Source of the DNA: an uncultured Clostridium sp.
GTDB lineage: Bacteria; Bacillota_I; Bacilli_A; RF39; UBA660
Direction of reading: 5' to 3'
Length of the DNA: 64,000 nucleotides
Assembly (NCBI GenBank): GCA_902493795.1
Contig: CABUQZ010000001.1
Coordinates: forward strand, 38,697-102,696
In this document: positions 2,959-49,967 of the stretch, in pieces
How the letters are laid out: each line of letters starts with the position of its first letter
Numbering within the stretch: position 1 is the first letter of the stretch
The notes under the pieces: model-generated
Seen by the model: only the letters and a program-made list of their open reading frames with translations
Database searches by the model: none
What the model was told of the DNA's origin: nothing
Made by a program: the position numbers and the translations under genes

Positions 2959-5085
2959 TTACATTTTAACACTATCTTTTAAATAATAATCTACTTTTTT
3001 AGCACCATTAGTAAGATATTCTGAGTTATATATTATTTCTTTAATTAAATTTATATTTTTCTTACTATTTTCAAGTTTCGTTTTTACTATCTGAACCATA
3101 TCTTCATAAGTTAAATCATTAAACATAATCTTTTTTAGATTAATATCTTCATCCATTTCTATTTTGTTATTATTACTTTGAAAACCAATTAATTCTTTAG
3201 ATATTTTATTGGTAATTAAAATAAAAAGTGAATTACTTAAATTATATTTAAATCCATTATAATCCTCGTAATGTCCAGTTTTCAACATTTTAAGAATAAT
3301 ATTTTTAACCTTATAATGACATTTATCAAAATTTTTAAGTATTATTAAATTAATAGGCTTATCTTTAATCATATTTAAAAATACATTATTGGTTTCGTTA
3401 ACTCCAAATTTAGCAAGATCATTAAGTTCACTTAAGTCAAGCTTGATTACATTATTATTAAATAAATATTGTCCTATTCTTTCTGCTAATAATGTTTTAC
3501 CTACCCCAGTCGAACCATAAAACATCAATGTAAGAGGTCTATCATTTTTATAATCACAATTAAAAATATTTTTACAATATGTAATAGTACTATCAATAGC
3601 TTTTGATTGAGCAATAACCTCTTTACTTAATTTCATCTTAATTCTTTTAAGATATCTATCTATATTTTTAGAATTATCAATGTAAACATTACATTTTTCA
3701 CTTATTATTTTATTTATTATATCTTTAGTAACCTTTTTAGGTTTATTATCACTTAACATTTTTATATCATTCAAATTTACTTCTGATTCAATTTCTCTTT
3801 CTTTTTTACGCAAAAGCATAGCTAACTTATAATTTTTTTTACTCAAAAACATATCTTTTTTTCTTTTTATTTCTTCAAGATTGTGTTTTAATTTACTGTT
3901 TTTAATTTGAATAAGAGAAGGCTTAACTGCCGTTTTAGAACAAGCTTCATCAAGTATATCAATTGATCTATCAGGTTCTTTTCTATTTGTTATATATCTA
4001 CGAGATAAGTCCATAATATATTTTAAAAGGTCATTAGTTATGTTAACGTTATGAAAATATTCATAACCTTTTTTTGTACTAACTAAAATGTTATAAAGCA
4101 TTTCTTCATTTGGTTCCTCAATTAATATATTTTGAAATCTTCTTGAAAGAGCTTTATCTTTTTCTATAAACTTTTTATATTCTTCATTTGTAGTAGCACC
4201 TATTATTTTAATATTTCCTCTTGCAAGAGCAGGTTTCAAAATATTACTTGCATCAATTGCACCATCAGCACCACCTGCTCCCACTAAAGTATGTATTTCG
4301 TCAATAAATAATATTATGTTGTTTTTCTCTGCATAGTTTATAACATTTAATAATTTTTCTTCAAACTCTCCCCTATATTTTGTACCAGAAACCATACCTG
4401 CCATTGAAATAGATACAATTTTTTTATTTAAAAGTTTATTAGGTACATCACCAATATTTATTTTTCTTGCTAGTTCTTCAACAATAGCAGTTTTTCCAAC
4501 ACCAGCATCTCCCAAAAGTAAAGGATTACATTTTGTTTTTCTAAGAAGAATTTCTATTATTTTCTCTATTTCCCTATCTCTTCCATATATTTTATTTTCA
4601 AAGTTATCTGAAGAAAGTATAACCCCAACATTTTTTAATATATCTTGATTAGCGTCATAAGAATATGAATCAAAACTTATCATCTCTTTAAGCATATCAA
4701 AATCAACATTGTATTCACAAAAAATTCTATAAGCTACACCCTCTCCTTCATCAAGAAGTAAAGAAAAAAACAGAGGTAAAGTAATTTTATCAAGATTATT
4801 TTTTGTCGAGTATTCAAAAGATTTATCAATTATTTTTTTTAATAATGGAGTATAAACAAATAATGAGTCTTCTTTTTCTCCGATTCCTAAATGCTCAATT
4901 ACTTTATTCTTAAATTCTGTGTATGTAATATTTTGTTGATTTAAAATACTACATATACTATTTTCAAAGCTTAGTATTGCCAGTATTATGTGTTCTGTTC
5001 CTATATAAGAATGTTTTAATGAAAACATTTCATTTTTAGAATAATTTAATACTTTTTTAAGTTCATCACTAAATTCTATAAACAT
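2959..5085 (-). CDS. clpC: Clp/Hsp100-family AAA+ ATPase, ClpC-like, with two N-terminal Clp_N repeats, an intact D1 and a degenerate D2
   Basis: D1 Walker A GDAGVGKTAIVE, Walker B ILFIDEIHTLVGAG, sensor SRRFQ. D2 P-loop GSTGVGKTLLAE but Walker B is degenerate (LIILKNFDKCH); an IGF tripeptide is present. Confidence 0.65.
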   Translation of the reverse strand: MFIEFSDELKKVLNYSKNEMFSLKHSYIGTEHIILAILSFENSICSILNQQNITYTEFKNKVIEHLGIGEKEDSLFVYTPLLKKIIDKSFEYSTKNNLDKITLPLFFSLLLDEGEGVAYRIFCEYNVDFDMLKEMISFDSYSYDANQDILKNVGVILSSDNFENKIYGRDREIEKIIEILLRKTKCNPLLLGDAGVGKTAIVEELARKINIGDVPNKLLNKKIVSISMAGMVSGTKYRGEFEEKLLNVINYAEKNNIILFIDEIHTLVGAGGADGAIDASNILKPALARGNIKIIGATTNEEYKKFIEKDKALSRRFQNILIEEPNEEMLYNILVSTKKGYEYFHNVNITNDLLKYIMDLSRRYITNRKEPDRSIDILDEACSKTAVKPSLIQIKNSKLKHNLEEIKRKKDMFLSKKNYKLAMLLRKKEREIESEVNLNDIKMLSDNKPKKVTKDIINKIISEKCNVYIDNSKNIDRYLKRIKMKLSKEVIAQSKAIDSTITYCKNIFNCDYKNDRPLTLMFYGSTGVGKTLLAERIGQYLFNNNVIKLDLSELNDLAKFGVNETNNVFLNMIKDKPINLIILKNFDKCHYKVKNIILKMLKTGHYEDYNGFKYNLSNSLFILITNKISKELIGFQSNNNKIEMDEDINLKKIMFNDLTYEDMVQIVKTKLENSKKNINLIKEIIYNSEYLTNGAKKVDYYLKDSVKM

Positions 5086-5142
5086 GTCATCACCTTTTAT
5101 TAGATTATATGTTTATAATGATTACACTTTTACTTTTTTAAA

Positions 5143-5172
5143 CAAAAAAAAGAAGCATACTACTATGCTTCA
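5143..5172 (-). terminator. Rho-independent terminator after the transporter gene
   Basis: Hairpin gaagcata/tatgcttc followed by a T-run on the minus strand. Confidence 0.6.
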
Positions 5173-5176
5173 AATT

Positions 5177-6601
5177 TTATAACCTTGCATTAAATATAAA
5201 CAAAATAACAAATATTGCCATAAATAATTCAAGTAATAGTTTCCATACAGCTTTTAGCCATTTACCATATGATACATCTGTATATGCAAGTGTAGACATC
5301 AAAATTACACTTGTTGGAGCAAACAACATAGTAAGTCCATACATTGATTGCCAAACTAATGCAGATAACCCTGCAGTCTTTGCAGTAGTTACAGCTAAAA
5401 TATAATATCCAGCAGAATTTGCTCCATAATATGATTCAACTGCAAATAAGCTAAACACTATTGCAACTATACACATAACAATTATTTGTGGAGATTCTGC
5501 TCCAAGATTAATTATATTTCTAACAATTGATAACTGAATTGGAACATTAGTTACAATAACTAATACTGTATAACACATTATAATTAATAATGCAGAGTAA
5601 ATTGCTTTTTTTGCACCTTCACCAAAATCTGTTAAGAAATCAGTAAATTTCTTTCTGTAGCAAAGGGATAATAAGTATCCAGCAAGTGCTACAACAAGAG
5701 CAGCTTCTAAAAGTGACCAAGCACCGAAAGCATTTTTTGTAGAAATTCCTAAAATTTTATTAAGATTTTCACACATAAATACTGCTTCATCACCAACTTT
5801 AGTGAAACTAGCAGTAATATCAGAAAAGAATGATATTTCAAATAAATCCCATGAAAAGAATGCCAATCCTAAAACTATTAATAAAACATCCAAAACTATA
5901 ACAATAGGATATGTTGTTTTATTTCTAGTTTCAACTTTTTCAGGTATACAATCTGAATTTACATTGCTTTCTACATTACGATGCTTTCTTGCATATAGAA
6001 TTGTGTTGATTAATACAATAGCTAATGATACTACTAGCAATATTAATTTGAAATAAAAGTTTGAACTTGCAGTTATTTTAAAAGAACTAAGAACATCAGT
6101 TATTCCAAATACATCATTAGCACTAAATACAGAACCAATTAATCCTGCTATTGTAGAACCAACAGTAAGCATTATTGCAGTAATTCTGTCATATCCCATT
6201 AATAATACTATAGATATTACAAAAGGGAATAACATCAACAATACTAAAGACATTCCTACCATTGATGATAATACTGCAAAAATTACTCCGATTATTATCA
6301 TAAATAACCATTCTAGACCATCAAATCCTTTAACAATTTTATCAAGTAGAACTCTATATTGAGGTATTTTATGTAAAACCCCATATAATCCACCTACTGC
6401 TAAAACAAATAAAGCAATATGGCCAAAATAACTAAGTGCTATTAAGAAATAATCTGCTACAGAGAACAAACCAACAACTGATGTATTATTTTGAGTTACA
6501 AATTCTCCATTTGAAACTCCAGTAATTGATAATGTCCAAGTTGCCATTACAACCAATAGAATAGTTATCAATAAAACCTTCAATAAATTATGCTTTTTCA
6601 T
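5177..6601 (-). CDS. Integral membrane transporter, IT superfamily (YfcC / C4-dicarboxylate anaerobic carrier-like)
   Basis: About 12 TM segments, roughly 475 aa; start MKKHNLLKV at 6601 preceded by AAAGGAGG (the tracked ORF begins 30 nt upstream). Confidence 0.45.
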   Translation of the reverse strand: MKKHNLLKVLLITILLVVMATWTLSITGVSNGEFVTQNNTSVVGLFSVADYFLIALSYFGHIALFVLAVGGLYGVLHKIPQYRVLLDKIVKGFDGLEWLFMIIIGVIFAVLSSMVGMSLVLLMLFPFVISIVLLMGYDRITAIMLTVGSTIAGLIGSVFSANDVFGITDVLSSFKITASSNFYFKLILLVVSLAIVLINTILYARKHRNVESNVNSDCIPEKVETRNKTTYPIVIVLDVLLIVLGLAFFSWDLFEISFFSDITASFTKVGDEAVFMCENLNKILGISTKNAFGAWSLLEAALVVALAGYLLSLCYRKKFTDFLTDFGEGAKKAIYSALLIIMCYTVLVIVTNVPIQLSIVRNIINLGAESPQIIVMCIVAIVFSLFAVESYYGANSAGYYILAVTTAKTAGLSALVWQSMYGLTMLFAPTSVILMSTLAYTDVSYGKWLKAVWKLLLELFMAIFVILFIFNARL

Positions 6602-6669
6602 TTTTCCTCCTTTAACAAAATTATACAACATTAAACCAAGGAATTACAACATTTTAAGCAAATTTATCT

Positions 6670-7257
6670 TTATTCTTCAACAACTTTAGTACCACAAATT
6701 AAATCATGAATAGATCTTTTATCTTTTCTAAATGCAATCATTAAAGTAGAAACAATTGTTATAAAGGAACTTAACATAGAAACAAGGAAAACAGTATAAA
6801 GATATTGATTTGATTTAATAAATAACAACATAATACATGAAATTAGTGAAAATAATACTCCAGACAAAATTAAAGCCCTTAATATATAGGTAGTATGTTT
6901 TAACTCTTTACCACTATTTGATGTTACTTTTATCTTTAATAATTTTTTTCCTAATGTTTGACCATTGTTGTAATATGCAAATGTACCAAAATAACCTATA
7001 GATAAAACACAAGATACTAAAGTTATTAAAATAGATTCTTTTTCTAATAAATATTGATTTTCTGTATACTTATCAAGATAAGTATCAAAATCTATTTTGT
7101 TTTCGGAATAATCATTTAACAAATTTCTTTCATCTTCTAAAGCTTTTTGATAGGAATTTGATTGAGGTACCCAAAATGTTAGTAAAGACAAAACAAGTGA
7201 TAATATTATTGAATCAATTAAAAATGAAGTAATTCTTGTAAAACTATGTGCAACCAT
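6670..7257 (-). CDS. RDD-family membrane protein
   Basis: TM helices flanking GQTLGKKLLKIKV (RDD-like motif). Confidence 0.45.
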   Translation of the reverse strand: MVAHSFTRITSFLIDSIILSLVLSLLTFWVPQSNSYQKALEDERNLLNDYSENKIDFDTYLDKYTENQYLLEKESILITLVSCVLSIGYFGTFAYYNNGQTLGKKLLKIKVTSNSGKELKHTTYILRALILSGVLFSLISCIMLLFIKSNQYLYTVFLVSMLSSFITIVSTLMIAFRKDKRSIHDLICGTKVVEE

Positions 7258-8240
7258 TATAAATCCTCCTCTATTTCACACTTATAATCATATAATATTT
7301 TTTTGATTTCTTCTATATCCTTAGTCATATATATCTTATTTTTTATTTCATTAGAGCCTTTTATTCCTTTTAAATACCATGCTACATGATTTCTTATTTC
7401 AAGAACAGCAACTTTTGATACTTTAATATCTTCTAAGTATTTAAAATGTTTAATACACATTTCTACTCTTTCAAGTGGAGTTGGGAGTTCAATTACTTTA
7501 TTATTTTCTATATACTCATTTACTTGTTTAAATATCCAAGGGTTTCCTAAAGCAGCTCTTCCTATCATAATAGCATCGCATCCTGTTTCATCTAGCATTT
7601 TCTTAGCACTAAAGATATCAACAATATCTCCATTTCCAATAACTGGAATTGAAACACTTTCTTTAACTTGTTTTATTACATTCCAATCAGCTTTTCCAGA
7701 GTATCCTTGACTTCTAGTTCTAGCATGAACACATATTGCACTAGCTCCTGCTTCTTCACATACTTTAGCAACTTCTACTGCATTAATATGTTCCATATCC
7801 CATCCGCTTCTTATCTTGACAGTCACTGGAATTGGCACAGTTTTAACAACTGTTTCTACTATCTCTCTGATTTTTTCAGGATTTTTTAATAAAGCAGACC
7901 CTGCCTGAGCTCTTAATGCAACTTTAGGCACAGGACACCCCATATTAATATCTATGATATCAGGATGCATATTTTCATAAATGTACTTTGCAGCAACAGC
8001 AAAAGACTCTTTATCACTTCCAAAAATTTGTTGAGAAATAGGTCTTTCTTCCTCTGTCATATAAAGCATATCAAGTGTCTTCTGATTATTATAAAAAATC
8101 GCTTTATCACTTACCATCTCTGCGTAAATTAGACCACAGCCCATTTCCTTCACAATCCTTCTAAAAGCAGAATTACAAACACCTGCCATAGGCGCAAGAA
8201 CCACTCTATTCTTTATTTCAACATTACCTATCTTCCACAT
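7257..8240 (-). CDS. dusB: tRNA-dihydrouridine synthase B
   Basis: VVLAPMAGVCNSAFRRI...INMGCPVPKV...KIRSGWD. Confidence 0.9.
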   Translation of the reverse strand: MWKIGNVEIKNRVVLAPMAGVCNSAFRRIVKEMGCGLIYAEMVSDKAIFYNNQKTLDMLYMTEEERPISQQIFGSDKESFAVAAKYIYENMHPDIIDINMGCPVPKVALRAQAGSALLKNPEKIREIVETVVKTVPIPVTVKIRSGWDMEHINAVEVAKVCEEAGASAICVHARTRSQGYSGKADWNVIKQVKESVSIPVIGNGDIVDIFSAKKMLDETGCDAIMIGRAALGNPWIFKQVNEYIENNKVIELPTPLERVEMCIKHFKYLEDIKVSKVAVLEIRNHVAWYLKGIKGSNEIKNKIYMTKDIEEIKKILYDYKCEIEEDL

Positions 8241-26707: not shown

Positions 26708-28030
26708 TTATTTTAATTCTGGAACTGCATTTGTATCAGACGTTTCTACTCTTAAGAATCCATCATATTCTGCTGTTTCTCCAGGAGACAACGTTCTTCT
26801 TGTAGTATCATATTCAGATGGATAAAACGTATACTCATTATTATTTTTTACATACATTAATGGATTATAAGAATAAGCATTTTTAAACTCAGGAGGTGCT
26901 ACTAAAACAAATGACCAGTCTTTAACATCAGTAGAAGAAGTATTAGTAACATAAACATTATAATCTTCTACATAAGAGCTTCCTCCAGCTGTATAATAAC
27001 TTTTTCTTTCTAATCTAACTTTTAATGTAGGAAGTTCAGCATACATATCATTTGAATCTCCAACTACACCACCATGTGATGTTCCTTCATGAGTACCATC
27101 GATAAGTTCAACATATTGAATATTACCATTTTTCAATATAAACTCTTTGTCTTTAGGGAACTTAATTTGGAATCCACTATTGAAATTGCTATGTGATGCA
27201 TTTAAATAGTTCCATGTAGATTGAGATGGATTTCCTATAACTTTTAATTTAGTTCCATTTAATTCAAGCTTTACTAAGCTTTGATCAAATCCAGGATTAT
27301 CTAGAATTGTTCCTTCTGGTACATCAAAAGTTGCATCAAATGACTTAATTGTCGACAAGTTACCAATATTTGTAACATCAATTGCAGCATTATAACAAAC
27401 TTTATAATCACCTTGAATACTACATCTATCTAAACGAACATCTATTTTTAATTTCAAGTCTTTATAAATCCATGTAATGTTATCTGTTGTTGTTGTAGTA
27501 GTAATATTTTGTTCAATTGTTTCTTTAGATGTACAGTTTGCATTATATACGACAACATGTTCTTTCCCCTCGATTGATTGAATCTTAACATCTGATATAG
27601 ATAATCCAGCTTCAATTAAATCGGCATCCAAATCATCGTATTTTGTTAAATCTTTAATTCCTTGTCCTGTTTCATCAACACTTGTCCAATAATAATCATA
27701 TCCATTACCATTGTAAGTAACAACTATATAGGCACTGACGAAATCACCATATGGTGAAACTGGTTTATCTCCGTTTTCAAGGTTAATACAAGAAGATGGA
27801 ATGTAATAAGTAACTGAGGAATCGTATGCTTCTAACTTACCGCTATTAACTAAAACTCTAGCACCGCCAATAACTTGTTTTGCTGTATCGACATATGCAT
27901 TTTTCCTTGAACTAGAGATATATGAAGTAACACTAGGAATTGCAATTATCATCAATATACCCAATATGATAATAACTGCTAATAATTCAATTAAAGTAAA
28001 CCCTTTCTTATTCTTTTTTTTCATTTTCAT
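26708..28030 (-). CDS. Type IV prepilin-like protein (N-terminal methylation motif) with a large C-terminal extension containing two repeated beta-rich modules
   Basis: Class III signal KKGFTLIELLAVIIILGIL. The C-terminal half has two modules of about 90 aa sharing VTN..G...W / GF motifs, reminiscent of carbohydrate-binding or Ig-like domains. Confidence 0.7.
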   Translation of the reverse strand: MKMKKKNKKGFTLIELLAVIIILGILMIIAIPSVTSYISSSRKNAYVDTAKQVIGGARVLVNSGKLEAYDSSVTYYIPSSCINLENGDKPVSPYGDFVSAYIVVTYNGNGYDYYWTSVDETGQGIKDLTKYDDLDADLIEAGLSISDVKIQSIEGKEHVVVYNANCTSKETIEQNITTTTTTDNITWIYKDLKLKIDVRLDRCSIQGDYKVCYNAAIDVTNIGNLSTIKSFDATFDVPEGTILDNPGFDQSLVKLELNGTKLKVIGNPSQSTWNYLNASHSNFNSGFQIKFPKDKEFILKNGNIQYVELIDGTHEGTSHGGVVGDSNDMYAELPTLKVRLERKSYYTAGGSSYVEDYNVYVTNTSSTDVKDWSFVLVAPPEFKNAYSYNPLMYVKNNNEYTFYPSEYDTTRRTLSPGETAEYDGFLRVETSDTNAVPELK

Positions 28031-28098: not shown

Positions 28099-28803
28099 CT
28101 ACATATATTCCTTTTTAATTACATCCACTCTTCTAGGATACTTTTTATTTGTTTTTGATACTTTTACAAGATTAATGAGTGTTCTAGCACTGTTTTCTAG
28201 TGGTAAAACAAATTTATTAACATTAACTAGTTCTAAACCCAAAGAAGATGATTTAAGTAAAAATTTATTTAATTCTTCTTCACAATTACCTTTCATAAAA
28301 ACTAAATGACCATTAATTTTAAGAGCACTCACAGATATTTCTGATATAATTCCTAAATTAGCTACTGCTCTTGCAGTTATATAGTCAAATTCTTCAACAT
28401 GTTTTTTTGAATAATCTTCCATTCTTTCGTGATATGCATCAATATCTTTTAAATTTAATTCTCTTATTACATAAAGCAAATAATTAACACGCTTTTGTAA
28501 GGAATCAATCAAAGTAATTTTAACATTAGGAAAAAATATTTTTATTACTATTCCAGGAAACCCTGCACCACTTCCAACATCACATAATCTACACTCTTTA
28601 GATAAATCGATTTCTTTACAAAGTGTTAAACTATCATAAAAATGTTTCAAGTATACATCTTTTTCTTCTGTTATAGCAGTTAGATTAATCTTTTCATTCC
28701 AATCAACTAGCATATGATAAAATCTATCAAGTAAGTTTAACTTCTCTTCTGTAACTTCTATACCTAACTTTTTAACTTCTAAAATAAACTCATCCTTATT
28801 CAT
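28099..28803 (-). CDS. rsmG: 16S rRNA (guanine527-N7)-methyltransferase RsmG (GidB)
   Basis: LCDVGSGAGFPGIVIKIFFP. Confidence 0.9.
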   Translation of the reverse strand: MNKDEFILEVKKLGIEVTEEKLNLLDRFYHMLVDWNEKINLTAITEEKDVYLKHFYDSLTLCKEIDLSKECRLCDVGSGAGFPGIVIKIFFPNVKITLIDSLQKRVNYLLYVIRELNLKDIDAYHERMEDYSKKHVEEFDYITARAVANLGIISEISVSALKINGHLVFMKGNCEEELNKFLLKSSSLGLELVNVNKFVLPLENSARTLINLVKVSKTNKKYPRRVDVIKKEYM

Positions 28804-30652
28804 CTTTATTCCTCTTTAAATATAAAAGTAACATGGAAATATCAGCAGGATTAACTCCACTAATTCTAATTGCTTGTCCAATAGAAATAGGTTTAATCTC
28901 ATTAAGTTTTTGTGCTGCTTCCTTAGCAAGATTAGGTACTTTACTATAATCTATATCATCAGCTAATTTAATCTTTTCATATTCAAGCATTTTCTCTGCT
29001 TCTTTATTTGCCTTATTAATATATCCTTCATATTTAGTATTTATTACAACTTGTTCAATAACATCTTTAGAAAATTCTTTTTCTACAAACTTTTCTATGT
29101 TTTCATATTGAATCTCAGGTCTTTTTAATAAATCATAAAGTGTAATTGAATCAAGAAGTGTTGCACTATTTATACTTTCTAAATACTCATTAATCTCCTT
29201 TTTTGGAGTTATCTTAGTCTCTTTTAAAATATCTGTTAAAAGTTTTATATTATTCTTCTTATCTTCAAATTTCTTATATTCTTCTTCATTAATTAACCCA
29301 ATATTATGGCCATAATCCATAAGTCTTAAATCAGCATTATCATGTCTTAAAAGCAAACGATATTCTGCCCTTGATGTTAGAAGTCTATAAGGATCTATTA
29401 CCCCTTTAGTAACCAAGTCATCGATAAGCACCCCAATATATGCTTCATTTCTTCCTAAGATTATTGGTTCTTTTCCATCGATTTTTCTAGCTGCATTAAT
29501 TCCAGCAATTAATCCTTGACCTGCTGCTTCTTCATACCCACTTGTACCATTTATTTGTCCAGCAGTATATAAATTCTCTATAAATTTACATTCAAGTGAT
29601 GGTTTTAACTGCAATGAATCTATTGCATCATACTCTATAGCGTAAGCATATTTAACTATTTCGGCATGTTCAAGACCTGGAAGACTATGAACCATTTGTT
29701 CTTGTATGTCATGTGGCATACTTGTAGAAAATCCTTGTAAATAAATATCATCGTAGTATAAGCTTTCTGGTTCCAAAAATAACTGATGTCTTTCTTTATC
29801 AGCAAATTTAACTATTTTATCCTCAATAGATGGACAATATCTAGGCCCAACACCAGTAACATACCCACCATACATACTAGATTTAGATAAATTATTTCTT
29901 ATTATCTCATGTGTTTTTGGAGTAGTATAAATTAAATAGCAAGGAACTTGTTCTTTAGGGTCATAATTAGGAGTATTTGAAAAAGAAAAATTGTATAACT
30001 CATCATCACCAGGTTGTATAGTAGCCTTTGAATAATCAATACTACTTTTTTTAATTCTTTGAGGAGTTCCTGTTTTTAATCTTTTAATATTAAATCCAAT
30101 ACGCTTTAAGGCATCACTTAAATACAAAGATGGTTCTTCATCATGAGGCCCACTAGATACTTTAGTGTCCCCACATAAAACCATACCTTTTAAATATGTT
30201 CCAGTTGTAATGACTAAGCTTTTACCTTCTATTTTTGTTCCATCTCTTAATATAATCGCTTTAAACTTTCCATCTTCCACAATAATATCTTCGGCCATTG
30301 CCTCTAATACTTCCAAATTTTCTTGATGAAGAATTGTCTCTTGCATCTCTTTTTGATAAGTAACTTTGTCAGCTTGTGCCCTTAATGCTCTTACTGCAGG
30401 TCCCTTTTTTGTATTAAGCATTTTCATTTGAAGAAAACTCTTATCAGTATTCTTACCCATTTCCCCACCTAAGGCATCTATTTCTCTTACAATAACTCCT
30501 TTAGCAGGTCCACCAATTGATGGATTGCATGGCATATCAGCAATATTTTTTATTTTACCAGTAACCAATAATGTTTTCTTACCTAATCTTGCACTAGCAA
30601 GACTTGCTTCACATCCAGCATGACCTCCACCAATAACTATTACATCATACAT
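28796..30652 (-). CDS. mnmG: tRNA uridine 5-carboxymethylaminomethyl modification enzyme MnmG (GidA)
   Basis: MYDVIVIGGGHAGCEASLASARLG; the tracked ORF extends 5 codons further upstream. Confidence 0.95.
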   Translation of the reverse strand: MYDVIVIGGGHAGCEASLASARLGKKTLLVTGKIKNIADMPCNPSIGGPAKGVIVREIDALGGEMGKNTDKSFLQMKMLNTKKGPAVRALRAQADKVTYQKEMQETILHQENLEVLEAMAEDIIVEDGKFKAIILRDGTKIEGKSLVITTGTYLKGMVLCGDTKVSSGPHDEEPSLYLSDALKRIGFNIKRLKTGTPQRIKKSSIDYSKATIQPGDDELYNFSFSNTPNYDPKEQVPCYLIYTTPKTHEIIRNNLSKSSMYGGYVTGVGPRYCPSIEDKIVKFADKERHQLFLEPESLYYDDIYLQGFSTSMPHDIQEQMVHSLPGLEHAEIVKYAYAIEYDAIDSLQLKPSLECKFIENLYTAGQINGTSGYEEAAGQGLIAGINAARKIDGKEPIILGRNEAYIGVLIDDLVTKGVIDPYRLLTSRAEYRLLLRHDNADLRLMDYGHNIGLINEEEYKKFEDKKNNIKLLTDILKETKITPKKEINEYLESINSATLLDSITLYDLLKRPEIQYENIEKFVEKEFSKDVIEQVVINTKYEGYINKANKEAEKMLEYEKIKLADDIDYSKVPNLAKEAAQKLNEIKPISIGQAIRISGVNPADISMLLLYLKRNKDE

Positions 30653-30716
30653 ATTTATCACTTCCATAAATCTATTGTATTATAATACAAAAATTATTAA
30701 AAAAAAAGAAATATTT

Positions 30717-33700
30717 CTATTCCTTTTCTTTAGCGACAGTCAACATTAGTTTTATTCTATTAACTTGATTAGTATGACTTGCTCCTGGATCATAATCAAT
30801 AGCAACAATATTACTATCTGGATAAAGTTTTCTTACCTTTTTAATTACTGCCTTACCTACTATGTGATTAGGAAGACAAGCAAAAGGTTGAACACAAACA
30901 ATATTATTTATACCTTCTTTAATAAGTTCAACCATCTCTCCAGTTAAGAACCATCCTTCACCAGTTTGATTTCCAACAGACAATATTCCTTCAACATTAT
31001 CAGCAAGTTTATAAATATCAACACTTTTTCTAAATCTAGTACCCTCTAACGCTTTATCTATTGGTTTCTCATATAAATGGATAATTTCAAGCATTTTTTT
31101 ACATAAGTAAGAGTAAAATGACCCTGTCTTAAACAATTTATCTTTAATTAAGCTATTATAAGCACAATACTTAACAAATCCCATAAGTTCAGGAGCACAT
31201 ACTTCTACTCCTTCTTTTTCAAGTTTATCAACTAAATGGTCATTTCCAAACGTATGATACTTAATAAGTATTTCACCAACAATTCCAACTTTAGGTAATT
31301 TTTTATCTTCTATTTCAATCTCACTAAATCTTTTAACAATTTTATTTATATTTTTCTTATATTCTTTAAATTTTCCATGATACAATGACTCTTCACACAT
31401 TTTTTCAAGCTCATCATACACTCTATTAGTTTCACCTTTGTTAACTTCATAAGGTCTAGTAGCATAGCTAAGTTTCATTAATAAATCACCATAACTTACT
31501 GCTTGAAGTAATTTATTGATAAGTGAAATATTTAAATGGAACGCTTGATCTTTTTCAAGTCCAGAAAAATTCAAAGACATAACTGAAACTTGAGGAAGCC
31601 CAGCATCTACTAAAGCTTTTCTAATTAGTCCTATATAGTTAGTAGCACGACATCCACCACCAGTTTGGGTTAAAATGACACTAGTATTATTAACATCATA
31701 TTTTCCACTAAGCAAAGTATGTACAAGTTGGCCTATAACTATAATTGCAGGATAACAAGCATCATTATTAACATATTTTAACCCTGTTTCAATCATTTCT
31801 TCAGTTGTTTCTTTTAAATATACAGGTTTATATCCTTGTGATAACAATGTTGCGCCCAACAAAGGCATATGAAATTGCGAAACATCAGGAAATAACAATA
31901 TATGTTTTTTATCGGCTTCACTAAAAGTATTCTTTTGATAACTATATGTTTCATATTCTTTATCATTTTGTCTTTTATTCATAGATGCAATTAAAGATCG
32001 AATTCTAATCTTTGCAGTACCTAAATTATTTACTTCATCTATTTTAATTGTAGTAAATAACTTATTATTAAATCTTAATATTTCTTCAGCTTGATCTGTT
32101 ACTATCGCATCAAGTCCACATCCAAAAGAATTTAAATTAACAAGTTCTAGGTTATCATAGCGACTTACAACATCACACGTATTAAATATTCTAGCATGGT
32201 ATTCCCATTGATTCATTACTCTCATTTTAGATTTAATTTTACTTAGATGACAAATTGAGTCTTCTGATAACACAGCAAGGCCTAAAGAATTTATCATAGT
32301 ATCAATTCCATGATTTACTTCTTTATCCAAATGATATGGACGCCCAGCAAGAACAATTGCCTTCTCATTATGTTTTAAAATATATTCTAAGAATTCTTCA
32401 CCCTTATCTTGAACGTCTTTTTTAAACTTTTCTTGTTCTTTAAACCCTAAAGCAACAGCTTTTTTAACTTCACTCTTTTTAAACTTGTATTTCTTAAATT
32501 CAGGAATTTCTAATAATCTCAAAACAAGTTTTTCTTGTTCAATAGGTAAAAATGGATTTATATAAGTTATATTGTTCTTCTCGATATCTTCAACATTTAA
32601 TTTAATTGCTTCACTATAAGAAGTTACTATTGGACAGTTATAATGGTTATCTGAGTTATCAAATTCACTTCTTTCATACATCAAACAAGGATAAAATATT
32701 GTCTTTACTCCTTTATTTATTAAATTGATAATATGTCCATGTACTAGTTTTGCAGGATAGCAAACTGATTCACTAGGCATTGATTCAATACCGCTTTCAT
32801 ATATTCTTCTATTAGAATGATCTGAAATAACAACTTTAAATCCCAAATTAGTGAATATTGTAAACCATAAAGGATAATCTTCATACATATTAAGTACTCT
32901 TGGAATACCTATTTCTCCACGTGGAGCATCTTCTATTGGTTTATAATCAAATAATCTATCATACTTCCAAGCATACATATTGGGTAATGTTGAACTGCTT
33001 CCATTGTTACCACTACCTCTTTCACACCTGTTACCAGAAATAAACCTTTTCTTATCAAACATATTTATTGTTAATGCACAATGGTTTTCACATCCCTGGC
33101 ATCTTGTGTTTGTTGTCTTAACCTTTTGATTTAATAGTTCTTCTTTAGAAAGCATAGAACTTACTATATCTTTATCGTCATACTTATTAAAGTTATCAAG
33201 AGCAATTAAAGCTACTCCATAAGCCCCCATAAGTCCAGCTATATCAGGTCTAATTACTTCTTTATGCGTAATATTTTCAAAAGCTTTTAAGACAGCATCA
33301 TTTAAGAATGTTCCACCCTGAACAACTATCTTTTCTCCTAGAGTAGTCATATCTCTTATTTTCATAACTTTTTGAATGGCATTACGAATAACAGAATAAG
33401 AAAGCCCAGCAAAAATATCACCTAAAGGTCTTCCCTCTTTTTGAGTTTGTTTTATTTTACTATTCATAAATACTGTACAACGACTACCTAAATCTATTGG
33501 AGACTTACTCTTAACAGCTAAGTCTACAAAATCATTAACTGTCATACCTAAGCTCTTAGCAAGTGTTTCAATAAAAGAACCACATCCACTAGAACAAGCT
33601 TCATTTAACATTATAGAGTTAACTGCACCATCTTTAATTCTGATGTACTTCATATCTTGTCCACCAATATCTATGATACTTTCAACTCCAGGCAAGAAAT

Positions 33701-34961
33701 AATTAGCAGCTTCATAATGAGCCATTGTCTCTATTTCACTAATATCAAGATTAAACGCTGTTTTAATAAGCATTTCACCATAACCAGTTGAACCACTTTG
33801 CCTAATAATAACTTTAGGAGGAAGTTTACTATATAAATCAAGGATCATTTCCTTAGCAGTATCATAAGGAGTACCTTTATTGCTTTGATAATTTTCATAT
33901 AGTAATTCCCCATCACTACTTATCAAAACAACCTTACAAGTTGTACTTCCAGCATCTATTCCTACAAATGCATCTCCAACATAACTATTTAAATCTCTTT
34001 TCTTAATTGAGGACTTTTTATGACGTTTTAAAAACTTTTCATAATCTTTATTATCTTTAAATAATGCTGGTAAATTATTAGATTCCTCTTCTTTAAAAGA
34101 CTCTAGTTTTTCCTGTATTTTTTTAAATTCTTTAATATCAAATACATTTTTCTTTTCTTTATCAAGTATTGCACCAATACACACAAAAACTTTTGTATCG
34201 ATATTAGGGTTAACCACTTCATCATCATTTAAGTTCAAAGTACTAATAAATCTATCTTTTAAACTAGATAAATAAGTAAGAGGTCCTCCCAAAAATATAA
34301 CATTACCCTTTATTGGCTTACCACAAGCAAGTCCACTTATTGTTTGGTTAACAACTGCTTGCATTATAGAAAGAGCTACATCTTCTTTTTTAGCTCCTTC
34401 ATTTAAAAGAGGTTGAACATCTGCTTTTGCAAACACCCCACAACGAGAAGCTATTGGGTAAATTGTTTTACCATTCTTAGCTAAATCATTAAGTCCTTCT
34501 GTTGTTGTATTCAAAAGTACTGCCATTTGATCCAAAAAAGAACCTGTTCCACCAGCACAAGAACCATTCATTCTTTGTTCTATTGTTTGATCAAAATATA
34601 TAATTTTAGCATCTTCCCCACCAAGCTCAATACACACATCAGTTTGAGGAACAAATTCCATAATAGCATTCTTACATGCAATTACTTCTTGAACAAAGTT
34701 AACATCCAAAAACTTAGCAAGTGCAATAGCACCACTACCAGTCATTGTTAATGTATAATTGTAACCTTTAAACTTTTCCATAATTTCAGAAAACAAAGTA
34801 AAAATTGTTTTCTTAGTATCTGAAAAATGTCTTCTATATTCACAAAATAAAATATTATTTTCTTTATCCATTACAACTGCTTTAACAGTAGTTGAACCAA
34901 CATCTAATCCTATATTTACTACTTTCATATAAATTACCACCGATAAAAATAATAGTAACAC
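30717..34961 (-). CDS. Fusion protein: two BadF/BadG/BcrA/BcrD-type ATPase (CoA-substrate-specific enzyme activase) domains, a DUF2229-like Cys-rich segment and a 2-hydroxyacyl-CoA dehydratase D-component (HgdB)-like domain
   Basis: Two acetate/sugar-kinase-fold blocks (NIGLDVGSTTVKAVV and FVGIDAGSTTCKVVL); Cys cluster RCQGCENHCALT..CERGSG; C-terminal HgdB-like region (~520 aa); 1414 aa in total. Confidence 0.65.
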   Translation of the reverse strand: MLLLFLSVVIYMKVVNIGLDVGSTTVKAVVMDKENNILFCEYRRHFSDTKKTIFTLFSEIMEKFKGYNYTLTMTGSGAIALAKFLDVNFVQEVIACKNAIMEFVPQTDVCIELGGEDAKIIYFDQTIEQRMNGSCAGGTGSFLDQMAVLLNTTTEGLNDLAKNGKTIYPIASRCGVFAKADVQPLLNEGAKKEDVALSIMQAVVNQTISGLACGKPIKGNVIFLGGPLTYLSSLKDRFISTLNLNDDEVVNPNIDTKVFVCIGAILDKEKKNVFDIKEFKKIQEKLESFKEEESNNLPALFKDNKDYEKFLKRHKKSSIKKRDLNSYVGDAFVGIDAGSTTCKVVLISSDGELLYENYQSNKGTPYDTAKEMILDLYSKLPPKVIIRQSGSTGYGEMLIKTAFNLDISEIETMAHYEAANYFLPGVESIIDIGGQDMKYIRIKDGAVNSIMLNEACSSGCGSFIETLAKSLGMTVNDFVDLAVKSKSPIDLGSRCTVFMNSKIKQTQKEGRPLGDIFAGLSYSVIRNAIQKVMKIRDMTTLGEKIVVQGGTFLNDAVLKAFENITHKEVIRPDIAGLMGAYGVALIALDNFNKYDDKDIVSSMLSKEELLNQKVKTTNTRCQGCENHCALTINMFDKKRFISGNRCERGSGNNGSSSTLPNMYAWKYDRLFDYKPIEDAPRGEIGIPRVLNMYEDYPLWFTIFTNLGFKVVISDHSNRRIYESGIESMPSESVCYPAKLVHGHIINLINKGVKTIFYPCLMYERSEFDNSDNHYNCPIVTSYSEAIKLNVEDIEKNNITYINPFLPIEQEKLVLRLLEIPEFKKYKFKKSEVKKAVALGFKEQEKFKKDVQDKGEEFLEYILKHNEKAIVLAGRPYHLDKEVNHGIDTMINSLGLAVLSEDSICHLSKIKSKMRVMNQWEYHARIFNTCDVVSRYDNLELVNLNSFGCGLDAIVTDQAEEILRFNNKLFTTIKIDEVNNLGTAKIRIRSLIASMNKRQNDKEYETYSYQKNTFSEADKKHILLFPDVSQFHMPLLGATLLSQGYKPVYLKETTEEMIETGLKYVNNDACYPAIIVIGQLVHTLLSGKYDVNNTSVILTQTGGGCRATNYIGLIRKALVDAGLPQVSVMSLNFSGLEKDQAFHLNISLINKLLQAVSYGDLLMKLSYATRPYEVNKGETNRVYDELEKMCEESLYHGKFKEYKKNINKIVKRFSEIEIEDKKLPKVGIVGEILIKYHTFGNDHLVDKLEKEGVEVCAPELMGFVKYCAYNSLIKDKLFKTGSFYSYLCKKMLEIIHLYEKPIDKALEGTRFRKSVDIYKLADNVEGILSVGNQTGEGWFLTGEMVELIKEGINNIVCVQPFACLPNHIVGKAVIKKVRKLYPDSNIVAIDYDPGASHTNQVNRIKLMLTVAKEKE

Positions 34962-35018
34962 TATTTAAAATTAAATGCAATTTATGAATTTTTTTCCCAT
35001 AATTTTCCAAAACTGCAA

Positions 35019-36374
35019 TTACTTACCTAAACAGAACTGACTAAATAGCTGATCTATTAATTCATCACTATAGTTTTCTCCAAGAATTTCACCAAGTTTA
35101 GTCCAAATTCTTTTAATATCTATAGCAACTAAATCAACAGGAACATTGTTGCTTATACCATTTTCAACATCAGATAATATAGGTAAGCACTCTTTAGCAA
35201 GAGTTATTTGTCTTGCATTTGTTAGAATTTCAACATCAGAACTTCCTATTTCTTCTAGGTTAAATAATTCAATAATCTTATTTTTTAATGATTCAATACC
35301 ATCAAGTGAAACTGTATCAGTATAAATAACATTTTTTAAATTTGTTACATCACTTTCTATTTTACTTTCTAAGTCTTTTTTATTAATTACTGTAATATAC
35401 TTTTTATCACCAATCATATCGATTAATTTATAATCGTCACCAGTTAGCTTTTCATTATTATTTAAAACAAGTAGGACTAAATCTGCTTTACTAATTTCTT
35501 TAATACTCTTTTCGACACCAAATTTTTCTACAACATCATCAGTATCTCTAATTCCTGCTGTGTCAATAAAATTAAGTAGAATGCCATTAAGTGTTATGCT
35601 TCCTTCAACTACATCTCTAGTTGTACCAGCTATTTCTGTAACAATTGCTTTATTTTCTCCTAAAAGACAATTTAAAATACTACTCTTTCCTACATTTGGA
35701 CGTCCTACAATAGCTAGATTAATACCTTCTTTAATAATTTTTCTTGTTTCACTTTCCTTAATTATAGAGCTAATTGATTCTTTCATAGAAGCTACCCTAC
35801 TCTTTATATCATTAATAGTAACTGTTTCAATATCTTCATATTCTGGATAATCTATATTAACTTCTACATTAGCAAGTAATTCAAGTAATTCCTGTCTAAA
35901 TTTTCTAATTACACCAGTAAGTCTTCCCTCTAATTGTTTCATAGATTGTTCTCTTGCTTTATCAGTTTTAGAATTAACTATATCCATAACTGCCTCAGCT
36001 TCTACTAAATCTATTCTCCCATTTAAAAATGCTCTTTTGGTAAACTCCCCTTTTTCAGCAAGTCTAGCCCCATTAAGTACCATAATTTCAAGTATTTTAT
36101 TAGTTGAAGCAATACCACCATGACAATTTATTTCTACAACATCTTCCCTTGTATATGTCTTTGGTGCTTTCATAACGCTTACTAAAACCTGGTCTATTTT
36201 AACGTCATCTTGTACAATATATCCAAAATTAATAGTATGACTATCTACTTTAGTTAAGTCTTTGCCACTAAAACATTTATTAACTAACTCAATACACCCA
36301 TTACCAGTTAATCTAATAATTGATATAGCACCCTTCCCTAATGCTGTAGATATAGCTACAATAATATCATTCAT
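35019..36374 (-). CDS. mnmE: tRNA modification GTPase MnmE (TrmE)
   Basis: G domain GRPNVGKSSILN and a C-terminal CxGK motif. Confidence 0.95.
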   Translation of the reverse strand: MNDIIVAISTALGKGAISIIRLTGNGCIELVNKCFSGKDLTKVDSHTINFGYIVQDDVKIDQVLVSVMKAPKTYTREDVVEINCHGGIASTNKILEIMVLNGARLAEKGEFTKRAFLNGRIDLVEAEAVMDIVNSKTDKAREQSMKQLEGRLTGVIRKFRQELLELLANVEVNIDYPEYEDIETVTINDIKSRVASMKESISSIIKESETRKIIKEGINLAIVGRPNVGKSSILNCLLGENKAIVTEIAGTTRDVVEGSITLNGILLNFIDTAGIRDTDDVVEKFGVEKSIKEISKADLVLLVLNNNEKLTGDDYKLIDMIGDKKYITVINKKDLESKIESDVTNLKNVIYTDTVSLDGIESLKNKIIELFNLEEIGSSDVEILTNARQITLAKECLPILSDVENGISNNVPVDLVAIDIKRIWTKLGEILGENYSDELIDQLFSQFCLGK

Positions 36375-41545: not shown

Positions 41546-42004
41546 ATGAACAATTATGAAATTAATGAAGATACGTATGCAATTATTTCACAGAATAGTG
41601 GAAAAACAAGAATAGTAGAAAGAAAATATGAGTTAGATGTGGAAAAAAATGCATACGAAATTATGGATGAAAGCTGTAAATACTATGGAAGTAGCTATAA
41701 GGGTAGAATAGAAGCTGCTAAAGATATTTTAAATTGTAGCTATAAACTGCCAATACTAGTAGAGGAGAGTAGTGCATTAATATTTTTTCCAATTAAGTCT
41801 TCTTTATTAGAAGATTGCTGTTGGATTAATCTTAATAGCATTGATAATATTGAAAAACAGAATAATAAATCTATTGTGACATTTAAAAATGGTAAAAAAG
41901 TGACCTTTGATATTTCTAAACTTTCACTAGAAAATCAAATTTATAGATCATCTAAATTAGAGTCAATAATTTATAAAAGAAAAAGTGCAAAAAAAAGGGA
42001 TTAA
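41546..42004 (+). CDS. comK: ComK-family competence transcription factor homolog
   Basis: SCKYYGSSYKGR, KLPILVEESSALIFFPIKS, CCWINL, VTFKNGKKVTFDISKLSLENQIYRSSKL align with conserved blocks of B. subtilis ComK. Confidence 0.7.
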   Translation: MNNYEINEDTYAIISQNSGKTRIVERKYELDVEKNAYEIMDESCKYYGSSYKGRIEAAKDILNCSYKLPILVEESSALIFFPIKSSLLEDCCWINLNSIDNIEKQNNKSIVTFKNGKKVTFDISKLSLENQIYRSSKLESIIYKRKSAKKRD

Positions 42005-47763: not shown

Positions 47764-47804
47764 TAATTTAGTTGTAATTTATTAATTAATATAGTAAAAT
47801 TTAA

Positions 47805-47892
47805 TTGATGCAATAAGTACGGCAGAACTAGGTCAGGACAGGAATGTAGCAGCCTTAATGCTTATAAAAATTTGTACTTATGTGCATCATTT
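47805..47892 (+). ncRNA. ffs: Signal recognition particle RNA (small 4.5S-type)
   Basis: Domain IV motif AGGUCAGG-ACA-GGAA-UGU-AGCAGCC closes a GGAA tetraloop. The 5' segment GATGCAATAAGTAC pairs with the 3' segment GTACTTATGTGCATC. A tadA-scr-dnaX neighbourhood is known from Bacillus. Confidence 0.7.
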
Positions 47893-47913
47893 TTTTTGGA
47901 GTTGTGGAAGTAT

Positions 47914-48336: not shown

Positions 48337-48346
48337 TATAAAAAAT

Positions 48347-48372
48347 TGTGGATAAAAGTTTCACGTGAAACG
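48347..48372 (+). promoter_or_regulatory. Composite element 1: DnaA box TGTGGATAA (48347-48355) abutting parS-like AGTTTCACGTGAAACG (14/16)
   Basis: Direct sequence match; 1-nt gap. Confidence 0.7.
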
Positions 48373-48465
48373 AAGTAAAAAAAATCTACGTAATAATTCC
48401 AATAATAGATTATTTATTGGAATTTTTTTTTGAAAATATTTCCTTATTACATTTTTTATTTAAAT

Positions 48466-48850
48466 ATATTATTTCTTGGGAAATATTCTATAAATTATTT
48501 CCCAAAGACCATAGATAGTAAAAATATATTTCCCGAGAAATATTTATATATAATTATTATCTTAATATATTAGTTGTTAAAAAAAATATTTCCTGGGAAA
48601 TATTCGATAAATTATTTCCCAAAAACTATAAATAGTAAAAAATATATTTCCCGGGAAATAATTATATGTAATTATTATCCAATATAATAGTTGTTGAAAA
48701 AAAATTTTTCCCAGGAAATATTCTATAAATTATTTCCCAAAAACTATAAATAGTAAAAAATATATTTCCCGGGAAATAATTATATGTAATTATTATCCAA
48801 TACAATAGTTGTTGAAAAAAAATATTTCCTAGGAATTATATAAATATTTT
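48466..48850. repeat. About 3.2 tandem copies of a 119-bp repeat, each carrying two Noc-binding-site-like palindromes
   Basis: Unit starts at about 48466, 48586, 48704 and 48823. Perfect ATTTCCCGGGAAAT at 48646-48659 and 48764-48777. Variants with 1-3 mismatches: ATTTCTTGGGAAAT (48471), ATTTCCCGAGAAAT (48528), ATTTCCTGGGAAAT (48588), TTTTCCCAGGAAAT (48706), ATTTCCTAGGAATT (48825). Confidence 0.85.
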
Positions 48851-49135
48851 ATATAAAGTATTAATTAAAGAATAGTGATTGCAATTTTATTTTAAGAATA
48901 ATCTTTTTATATTATATAAGATTATTTTTATTTGTGGAAAAAGAAATATATAGTTTTAATAATAAAGAAAATAAACGAAGAAAAAATATTTAATAATAAA
49001 CATATTTTATAAAAAATAAATTTTGTATATGCATCTTGTTGATAAAAGTTATAAGTGGCAAAAGAGAAGAAAATATAAATGAAAAAATGGTAAAACGAAG
49101 AAAAAAAGATTAATTTATTAAATACAAACAGTTTA

Positions 49136-49161
49136 TGTGGATAAATGTTTCACGTGAAACA
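49136..49161 (+). promoter_or_regulatory. Composite element 2: perfect DnaA box TGTGGATAA plus perfect parS TGTTTCACGTGAAACA (49146-49161)
   Basis: 16/16 match to the Bacillus-type parS consensus TGTTNCACGTGAAACA. Confidence 0.85.
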
Positions 49162-49250
49162 TAATAATAATCTGGAAAAAGGAAGTAATAAACAAAATAG
49201 GTGAAAAACAGAACGGAGAATAAGATATTGATGAATAAATTAAGAAATCA

Positions 49251-49275
49251 AAAGGATAAAGTTTCATGTGAAACT
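49251..49275 (+). promoter_or_regulatory. Composite element 3 (degenerate): AAAGGATAA plus AGTTTCATGTGAAACT (13/16)
   Basis: Same architecture as the other units, with mismatches. Confidence 0.45.
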
Positions 49276-49375
49276 ATTGATAGTGGAAAAAGATATTATA
49301 TAGAATAAAAAAGAAAGTAAAACGGAGAAAAAAAGTTTTATATATAACATTTAAGAAAAATAATATGAACATTTT

Positions 49376-49400
49376 TGTGAATAATGTTTCACGTGAAACA
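49376..49400 (+). promoter_or_regulatory. Composite element 4: DnaA box TGTGAATAA plus perfect parS TGTTTCACGTGAAACA (49385-49400)
   Basis: 16/16 parS; the box has one mismatch. Confidence 0.85.
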
Positions 49401-49488
49401 TAAAACTTAGTGGAAAATATAAAAAATATTAATAATTTGATATGATTATAATTGTGACTAAATGCTTTATGTATCAAAATTTCTAGAT

Positions 49489-49513
49489 TGTGGAAAAAGT
49501 TTCACGTGAAACA
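49489..49513 (+). promoter_or_regulatory. Composite element 5: DnaA box TGTGGAAAA plus parS AGTTTCACGTGAAACA (15/16)
   Basis: Direct sequence match. Confidence 0.75.
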
Positions 49514-49585
49514 TTATAAATAAAATGTAGAATATAACTTATAAATAATATTTTAAATAATAATGTAATAAAAACGGTTGTGCTT

Positions 49586-49686
49586 TGTGGATAAAAATTG
49601 TTGATTAAAAAAATAGAAATATATGTAAAGTAAAATAAAAATAGAATATTAAAAAATAATTTTTATATATTTTTTATTGTGGATAA
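49586..49686 (+). promoter_or_regulatory. Two further perfect DnaA boxes (TGTGGATAA at 49586-49594 and 49678-49686) inside an almost pure A/T tract (49600-49900)
   Basis: 9/9 consensus boxes in the same orientation as the composite units; the flanking DNA is over 90% AT. Confidence 0.7.
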
Positions 49687-49930
49687 AATTTAAAAAAACA
49701 AAAAAATATGTGTTTTAACACTTTTTATATCAAGAAAATAACAAAAATGTAATAATAATATTTATATGTATGATTTTGCTTATAAAATATTTTTATAGAT
49801 AAAAAATAATGTTTTTATATAATGTCAATATGTATGCTTAAAAATAAATGTAAAGTATGTAAATATACGTAAAAATAATGATAACTTGTTGATAAAAAAT
49901 ATATTCAAAATGTCTGTAAAATAAAATATT

Positions 49931-49945
49931 TATGGTATAATATAT
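49931..49945 (+). promoter_or_regulatory. Extended -10 promoter element (TGgTATAAT) for dnaX
   Basis: tatggtataat lies 25 nt upstream of the dnaX start. Confidence 0.45.
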
Positions 49946-49967
49946 CTTGAGATTTATAGGGGGACTT

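Follow-up and report, generated by a model that had tools for sequence, protein, structure and literature searches.

The locus examined in this work raises the question of which enzyme is encoded by a very large open reading frame (ORF) that separates mnmE from mnmG near a replication origin. The ORF lies in a stretch of 64,000 nucleotides (nt) of DNA from an uncultured Clostridium sp. (contig CABUQZ010000001.1), which is referred to here as the window. All positions are those of the window unless another locus is named. Judging from its relatedness to known enzymes, the gene product is probably an anaerobic synthase of plasmalogens (vinyl-ether lipids) that consists of a single polypeptide. 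This enzyme is the PlsA-PlsR fusion of the benzoyl-CoA reductase / 2-hydroxyacyl-CoA dehydratase (BCR/HAD) superfamily that is usually called PlsA. The protein adds a member, from an uncultured Bacilli-type anaerobe, to an enzyme kind that is already known. The enzyme itself is ordinary, and the one unusual feature is where its gene lies in the genome.

The gene and its likeness to plasmalogen synthases

A single ORF on the minus strand spans 30717..34961 and has 1414 codons in the ORF list and its translation when it is started at GTG. Translation more likely begins with the ATG at 34928 (MKVVNIGLDVGS). A Shine-Dalgarno-like motif (GGTGG) precedes this ATG by about 8 nt. The close homologues all begin at the equivalent position. 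Exactly the same product of 1403 amino acids (aa) was called by gene callers on 18 independently assembled contigs, where its neighbouring genes are also the same. Based on these homologue N-termini and gene calls, the real protein is most likely 1403 aa rather than 1414 aa. The length of 1414 aa given in the initial annotation is correct for the maximal ORF from GTG but not for the likely protein. According to the ORF list, the homologue starts, and the gene calls, the fused PlsA-PlsR-type enzyme (1403 aa and stop) is encoded in full by 30717..34928 on the minus strand. Residue numbers refer to the 1403-aa protein. More than 100 homologues of 1402-1438 aa are colinear with the window protein in alignment. 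The giant ORF between mnmE and mnmG that was described in the initial annotation is real, since it occupies a single frame and its product recurs on the 18 contigs and colinearly in the homologues. A merge of two genes by sequencing or assembly error, which the same annotation had considered, is ruled out by these contigs and full-length homologues.

In C. perfringens, the plsA-plsR operon was found to encode the anaerobic plasmalogen synthase (Jackson et al., 2021, as cited in PMC8788747, PMC9702350, and PMC12838417). In many bacteria the synthase is encoded by one gene of about 4.2-4.9 kb (PMC12838417). When expressed in E. coli, the genes of E. faecalis K-4 (4,248 bp), L. cremoris, B. longum subsp. 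suis, and C. perfringens were confirmed to direct plasmalogen synthesis, and the genes of S. mutans and M. elsdenii had been validated likewise in earlier work (PMC12838417). PlsA-PlsR turns diacyl lipids into plasmalogens and is oxygen-sensitive (PMC8788747; PMC9702350; PMC12838417). The proposed chemistry comprises two sequential electron reductions, protonation, and dehydration at the sn-1 acyl ester (PMC8788747; PMC9702350).

The E. faecalis plsA gene was recovered from metagenome contigs by scanning with the published forward cloning primer (PMC12838417). The recovered gene (locus L090) is 4,248 bp long, which is the published length, and starts with the forward primer. Its 3' end fits the reverse primer except for one extra A in an A-run. 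A TetR-family gene is located directly upstream of it, as has been described for EF1326/EF1327 (PMC9702350). E. faecalis PlsA was not among the best 120 matches of a protein search seeded with the Listeria protein, which consisted of Listeria, Paenibacillus, and Bacillus only.

The window protein is 51% identical to E. faecalis PlsA (EF1327 / Q835P9; strain K-4) with 69% positives and 1% gaps, where aa 3-1399 of the former are aligned to aa 2-1404 of the latter. Both proteins are of similar length (1403 aa in the window and 1415 aa in E. faecalis) and exhibit the same order of modules: two activase domains (Act1 and Act2), a linker with four cysteines (Cys), and two reductase halves (Red1 with DUF2229, and Red2). 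Both proteins share all conserved Cys. The Pfam pattern is also identical, including the weak C-terminal fragments of DUF2229 and HGD-D. The two genes differ in their surroundings. The E. faecalis gene has a divergent TetR/AcrR regulator directly upstream, whereas the window gene has none and lies inside the mnmE-mnmG unit.

The comparison was extended to a set of 31 PlsA-like proteins that includes Listeria, Clostridium, Blautia, Collinsella, Desulfosporosinus, and Fusobacterium. Most of these proteins share 46-58% identity with E. faecalis PlsA, and the outlier is Haliovirga (38%). The clade of the window protein nests inside the PlsA-like group in the neighbour-joining tree. A separate paralogue class represented by Paraclostridium is 24-28% identical and has neither the linker Cys nor the Red2 Cys. 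The Fusobacterium enzyme is split into proteins of 975 aa and 404 aa, and the break falls at aa 988/1005 of the window protein. Red2 is considered the equivalent of PlsR because the 404-aa product of the second Fusobacterium gene aligns from aa 1005 onward. The likeness to C. perfringens PlsA-PlsR (CPE1194/CPE1195) was judged through this split form, whose two proteins correspond to aa 1-988 and aa 1005-1403 of the window protein. The overall modules are the same, and they are fused in the window protein and encoded by two genes in C. perfringens. The family is large and widespread. A search with the reductase half at E <= 1e-30 gave 1,020 representatives (clusters at 50% identity), which include fused, reductase-only, and PlsR-sized forms.

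These findings bear on the initial annotation, where the function of the protein was called unknown because databases label the family as '2-hydroxyacyl-CoA dehydratase' or 'CoA-substrate-specific enzyme activase'. That statement is out of date given the fused PlsA-PlsR architecture and the end-to-end identity to the validated E. faecalis enzyme. Recognition of plsA predicts plasmalogens in this uncultured anaerobe and its relatives and matters little beyond annotation. Plasmalogens affect membrane packing, tolerance of acid and oxidative stress, and possibly lipid signalling in the host.

The same layout is also known from glycerol ester reductase (Ger). Ger of T. maritima (Tmari_0479) and D. 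alkenivorans (SHJ90043) belongs to the same superfamily and consists of two PF01869 domains, PF09989 (DUF2229), and small D and H fragments, and it acts on the sn-1 ester of membrane lipids under anoxia only (PMC13159169). If the window protein were Ger, it would reduce the sn-1 (possibly also the sn-2) ester past the vinyl ether to a saturated alkyl ether. This assignment is considered unlikely. A report from 2026 speculates that two activase domains go with Ger (PMC13274423), but the number of activase domains fails to discriminate Ger because the validated plasmalogen synthase of E. faecalis likewise carries two. The product of Ger is a saturated alkyl ether, and confirmed Ger are from Thermotogota and Desulfobacterota that make alkyl ethers without plasmalogens (PMC8788747). 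The relatives found here are instead metagenome-assembled genomes (MAGs) that carry the labels Bacilli, Clostridia, and Clostridium. Among the named relatives, the nearest are recorded as 'MAG: Bacilli bacterium', and several related genomes appear to be from gut or rumen samples as judged by record names only. Ten distant representatives were checked for the Ger lineage, and by name they are from Spirochaetes, Synergistetes, Ignavibacteria, Opitutales, and a protist, with none from Thermotogota. PlsA is preferred over Ger because the window protein is 51% identical over its full length to a validated PlsA, is nested in the PlsA clade, and belongs to a matching type of organism.

Several points weigh against the identification as PlsA. 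It has been stated that PlsA and Ger are at present not assignable from primary structure alone (PMC13274423). The window protein and Ger were set side by side by the published description of Ger. Plasmalogen production in the uncultured organism is a prediction from sequence. The number and type of the clusters are inferred, as are the electron donor and the part played by the four-Cys linker. Transcription of the gene together with mnmE and mnmG is deduced from short gaps and the lack of a predicted terminator.

Modules, cysteines, and a candidate mechanism

The two activase ATPase domains of BCR/HAD type form the N-terminal part of the protein. Act1 consists of aa 1-262 (34143..34928, minus strand) and Act2 consists of aa 320-580 (33189..33971, minus strand). 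BcrAD_BadFG (PF01869) matches both when the domains are scanned separately, with E 8e-26 for Act1 and E 8e-42 for Act2. TIGR00241 (acyl-CoA dehydratase activase) matches in two stretches with E 1e-74. Act1 matches HadI (E 9e-21) and HgdC (E 1e-18), and Act2 matches the same two proteins (E 1.6e-32 and E 2.8e-28). The AlphaFold model of aa 1-680 (pLDDT 81) exhibits target-normalised Foldseek TM scores of 0.82-0.89 to MbdQ, HadI, and HgdC.

C124 and C163 of Act1 align with both Cys columns of HgdC, in the motifs MNDKCAAGTG and SSTCTVF. C445 and C484 of Act2 align with the same two columns, and Cys449 is conserved too. In the HgdC structure, the Cys of these columns are the ligands of a [4Fe-4S] cluster that bridges two subunits. 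Cys124 and Cys163 are therefore putative cluster ligands, and they are invariant in all 31 PlsA-like sequences.

The four-Cys linker module occupies aa 600-640 (33009..33131, minus strand) and was read from the translation as RCQGCENHC...GNRCERG. Its pattern is C610-x2-C613-x3-C617...C635. All four Cys are invariant in 31/31 family members compared, and none of them is present in the 24-28% identical paralogue from the Paraclostridium class. AlphaFold models the linker as a small three-stranded sheet with moderate confidence. We infer that the linker binds a metal or a cluster, and by analogy it may be either a relay cluster or a structural metal site.

The first reductase/dehydratase half (Red1) consists of aa 655-990 (31959..32966, minus strand), as delimited by DUF2229, fold, and Cys conservation. 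DUF2229 (PF09989) is found at aa 673-892 with E 8.7e-91 and covers profile positions 2-218 of 218. Cys723, Cys765, and Cys937 of Red1 are invariant among the 31 sequences. The second half (Red2) consists of aa 1005-1403 (30720..31916, minus strand), as delimited by the Fusobacterium alignment and fold. Cys1058, Cys1093, and Cys1351 of Red2 are invariant (31/31), and Cys1345 is kept in 29/31. Across the whole protein, 15 Cys are invariant in 31/31 sequences, and Cys1345 is the sixteenth. Red2 gives sub-threshold matches to DUF2229 and HGD-D, as does E. faecalis PlsA. The HGD-D match (PF06050) is below the Pfam cut-off (E 0.0055; 16.8 bits compared with 28.4). Red1 and Red2 are related around the xCYPA motif, where C723 is aligned with C1058 (hhalign local probability 80%). 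Such internal relatedness is as would be expected of a fused alpha/beta pair.

A fold search was needed for the reductase half because sequence and profile searches against the PDB matched the activase domains and no solved catalytic subunit, HadB/C included. The AlphaFold model of aa 590-1403 has pLDDT 82 and pTM 0.79. Its ten best Foldseek matches in the PDB are all DCCP (double-cubane cluster protein; 7yyl, 7yzm, and 6eno), HadB/HadC (3o3n and 3o3o), or BzdNO (8s2r and 8s02), with 9-15% identity and TM 0.39-0.48 normalised to the target. The domain list of the initial annotation (BcrAD_BadFG, HGD-D, and DUF2229) agrees with these results. The two BadF/BcrA/HgdC-type ATPase domains are borne out by BcrAD_BadFG, TIGR00241, and the fold matches. 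The Cys-rich linker (CQGCENHC...CERG) is present. The 2-hydroxyacyl-CoA-dehydratase D-subunit-like domain is weak by sequence and confirmed at the fold level. The superfamily reading of an activase pair fused to iron-sulfur (Fe-S) modules like those of HAD, BCR, and DCCP is thereby upheld, and DCCP figures among the top matches by fold.

The fold matches raise the alternative of a BCR/HAD-type enzyme that acts on a non-lipid substrate, such as a self-activating 2-hydroxyacyl-CoA dehydratase or a DCCP-like small-molecule reductase, along the lines of the initial annotation. The database names of the family point in the same direction, and paralogue classes of similar layout whose function is not known exist (Paraclostridium, 27% identity). 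This alternative is judged very unlikely. The fold matches are remote when set against the 51% identity to a validated PlsA. The HGD-D match does not reach the cut-off, and no solved catalytic subunit was matched at the sequence level, profile search included. CoA-transferase or fermentation genes were not found nearby, where the neighbours by Pfam are mnmE, mnmG, rsmG, jag, and yidC. DCCP itself is of a single-subunit type of about 420 aa that carries an [8Fe-9S] cluster and has a separate reductase (DCCP-R). It has six Cys per subunit, whereas each half of the window protein has three invariant Cys. The DCCP structures 7yyl and 6eno, which are among the top fold matches, exhibit 11-12% identity and TM 0.40-0.46 (target), and the window protein has two halves that are non-identical.

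More generally, the window protein resembles the systems HgdAB/HgdC, HadBC/HadI, BzdNOPQ, MbdONPQ, and DCCP/DCCP-R in its activase fold (TM 0.79-0.89), in the HgdC Cys columns, in the fold of the catalytic halves (HadB/C, BzdNO, and DCCP), and in the logic of ATP-driven low-potential electron transfer. Those systems differ in that they consist of separate subunits and act on CoA-thioester or small-molecule substrates. The window protein differs from them in its extra invariant four-Cys linker.

A mechanism for the window protein as PlsA can be proposed from its family by analogy with HgdC/HadI, HAD, and BCR, where the module order, the Cys set, and the folds are what the analysis itself shows. 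Act1 and Act2 would form an intramolecular pseudo-dimer that shares one [4Fe-4S] cluster held by Cys124/Cys163 and Cys445/Cys484. This cluster would be reduced by a low-potential donor of the cell, and ATP binding and hydrolysis would lower its potential and drive the electron onward. The electron may then travel via the four-Cys linker to Fe-S clusters of Red1 and Red2. A more doubtful variant is that the linker holds an additional relay cluster, of a kind not described for HAD or BCR, which would make the fused enzyme self-contained. Each catalytic half would carry a cluster on three Cys, like the alpha and beta subunits of HAD, with one iron site left open to the substrate carbonyl. There, a complete diacyl glycerophospholipid would take two electrons at the carbonyl of its sn-1 acyl ester, followed by protonation and dehydration. 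The product would be the 1-alk-1'-enyl (vinyl ether) bond of a plasmalogen.

The position between mnmE and mnmG

The window is low in GC (about 28%), and its GC skew changes sign near 38.5 kb by dnaA, which marks the origin. The order of genes on the minus strand according to Pfam is rnpA, yidC, jag, mnmE, the large ORF, mnmG, and rsmG, and dnaA is on the other strand. The upstream neighbour mnmE is located at 35019..36374 (TrmE_N, MnmE_helical, and MMR_HSR1), the downstream neighbour mnmG at 28796..30667 (GIDA, E 5e-165), and rsmG at 28099..28803, all on the minus strand. The gene is separated from mnmE by 90 nt (34929..35018, minus strand) and from mnmG by 49 nt. A consensus scan predicted no terminator and no strong promoter in these two flanking gaps, and a terminator-like hairpin is predicted between jag and mnmE. 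Co-transcription of the gene with mnmE-mnmG-rsmG is plausible from this layout.

The gene matches its neighbours in GC (0.296), GC3 (0.151), and codon usage (r 0.96). A recent horizontal insertion was considered as a candidate explanation of the position and is unsupported, since these values agree with those of the neighbouring genes.

The synteny of close relatives was taken from contigs that encode homologues of the protein, as the scan of genome contigs gave identities of 58% or less among the matches listed. The window's own protein has the same gene arrangement at 4/4 of its listed places. The relatives at 84% (L005), 82% (L088), and 78% identity (the contig with P0021) likewise carry the gene in the mnmE-mnmG gap, with 0-2 extra unrelated small genes on either side of it. 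The arrangement is thus common to the four examined contigs of one sub-lineage, and six further close relatives that were examined lack it. Other relatives at 73-80% identity exhibit three unrelated contexts. The gene follows maf, with rubrerythrin encoded 0-1 genes downstream, or it follows a glycosyltransferase gene, with an ABC transporter gene next or one gene further, or it is flanked by genes for a PHP-domain and an HD-domain protein. The order rsmG-mnmG-mnmE is contiguous in two genomes at 58% identity, where the gene is 4-5 kb off. The gene is also located elsewhere in E. faecalis, Listeria, Collinsella, and Fusobacterium.

The placement is a lineage-specific rearrangement and not a conserved functional association, because it is shared at 78-84% identity, the contexts differ at 73-80% identity, and the gap accepts other insertions. 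The placement that the initial annotation called striking is therefore real but confined to one lineage. The gap between mnmE and mnmG behaves as a permissive insertion site, since unrelated small genes have been collected there too. The relocation into this gap is a tidy synteny marker for the lineage without an evident mechanistic message.

A functional partnership with MnmE and MnmG, for instance as an Fe-S reductase for tRNA wobble-uridine modification under anoxia, was also weighed. The gene is on the same strand between both genes with short gaps and no predicted terminator, and the arrangement recurs in three related contigs. However, the orthologues at 73-80% identity are found in at least three unrelated contexts, the gene lies elsewhere in E. 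faecalis, Listeria, Collinsella, and Fusobacterium, the gap takes up unrelated small genes in this lineage, and the function of the gene in other species is lipid modification. Such a partnership is highly improbable and was rejected as unsupported, as nothing that was found ties the gene to tRNA modification.

With the placement read as a lineage-specific rearrangement, plsA of this uncultured low-GC Bacillota (Bacilli) lineage would have been relocated into the origin-proximal mnmE-mnmG-rsmG unit, where it is probably transcribed with the unit and is without the TetR-type regulator of facultative anaerobes. The missing regulator fits the statement on strict anaerobes in the Goldfine review (PMC9702350). 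A further step is doubtful, namely that capture of plsA by the unit and loss of TetR made its expression constitutive and dependent on replication-associated gene dosage, so that plasmalogens would be an obligatory core component of the membrane and not a conditional one.

The related genomes hold different small genes in the jag-mnmE, mnmE-plsA, and plsA-mnmG gaps, mostly without a Pfam match. These genes are located at 4923-5570 and 7105-7917 of L005 and at 4033-4806, 6192-7904, and 12283-14027 of L088. Those with a Pfam match include DUF4234, DUF2752, and a Gp10_C-like gene. In this lineage, the jag-mnmE-plsA-mnmG block appears to be a gene-insertion hotspot.

Other observations in the window and the searches

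A second insertion in the usually conserved origin-proximal block is found at 26708-28030 on the minus strand, between rsmG and the noc/parB genes. The encoded protein has 440 aa and carries a methylation motif of the prepilin type at its N-terminus. This gene is also found in L088 (16728-18044) and not in L005. On the plus strand, comK (PF06338, E 3e-41) lies at 41546-42004 between dnaN and recF. Apart from comK, the dnaA-dnaN-recF-gyrB-gyrA block is standard.

A non-coding stretch of 1.6 kb with about 19% GC is located at 48340-49950 between a tadA-like deaminase gene and dnaX. The signal recognition particle (SRP) RNA is at 47804-47894, on the tadA-like side of this stretch. The stretch holds seven copies of the palindrome ATATTTCCYGGGAAATAT at a spacing of 57-60 nt and five copies of TGTGGATAAAnGTTTCACGTGAAAC. 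TGTGGATAAAnGTTTCACGTGAAAC contains TGTGGATAA, which is the DnaA-box consensus TTATCCACA as read on the opposite strand, and then the palindrome GTTTCACGTGAAAC. Neither a tRNA nor an Rfam family above threshold was found at 48340-49950. The stretch is about 10 kb away from dnaA and may be a cluster of DnaA boxes or a regulatory array.

The anaerobic protist Barthelona sp. PCE has a homologue (P0292 / KAL0229736.1) of 1415 aa that is full-length and 39% identical over the reductase half. It is encoded on a 2.17-Mb contig and may represent a bacterial-to-eukaryote transfer of a PlsA/Ger-type enzyme. Several plasmid records in PLSDB are clearly chromosomes or fragments of them, such as a 2.9-Mb record of L. 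monocytogenes and 4.8-4.9-Mb records of E. coli. The Listeria plsA locus used in this work came from such a mis-filed PLSDB record.

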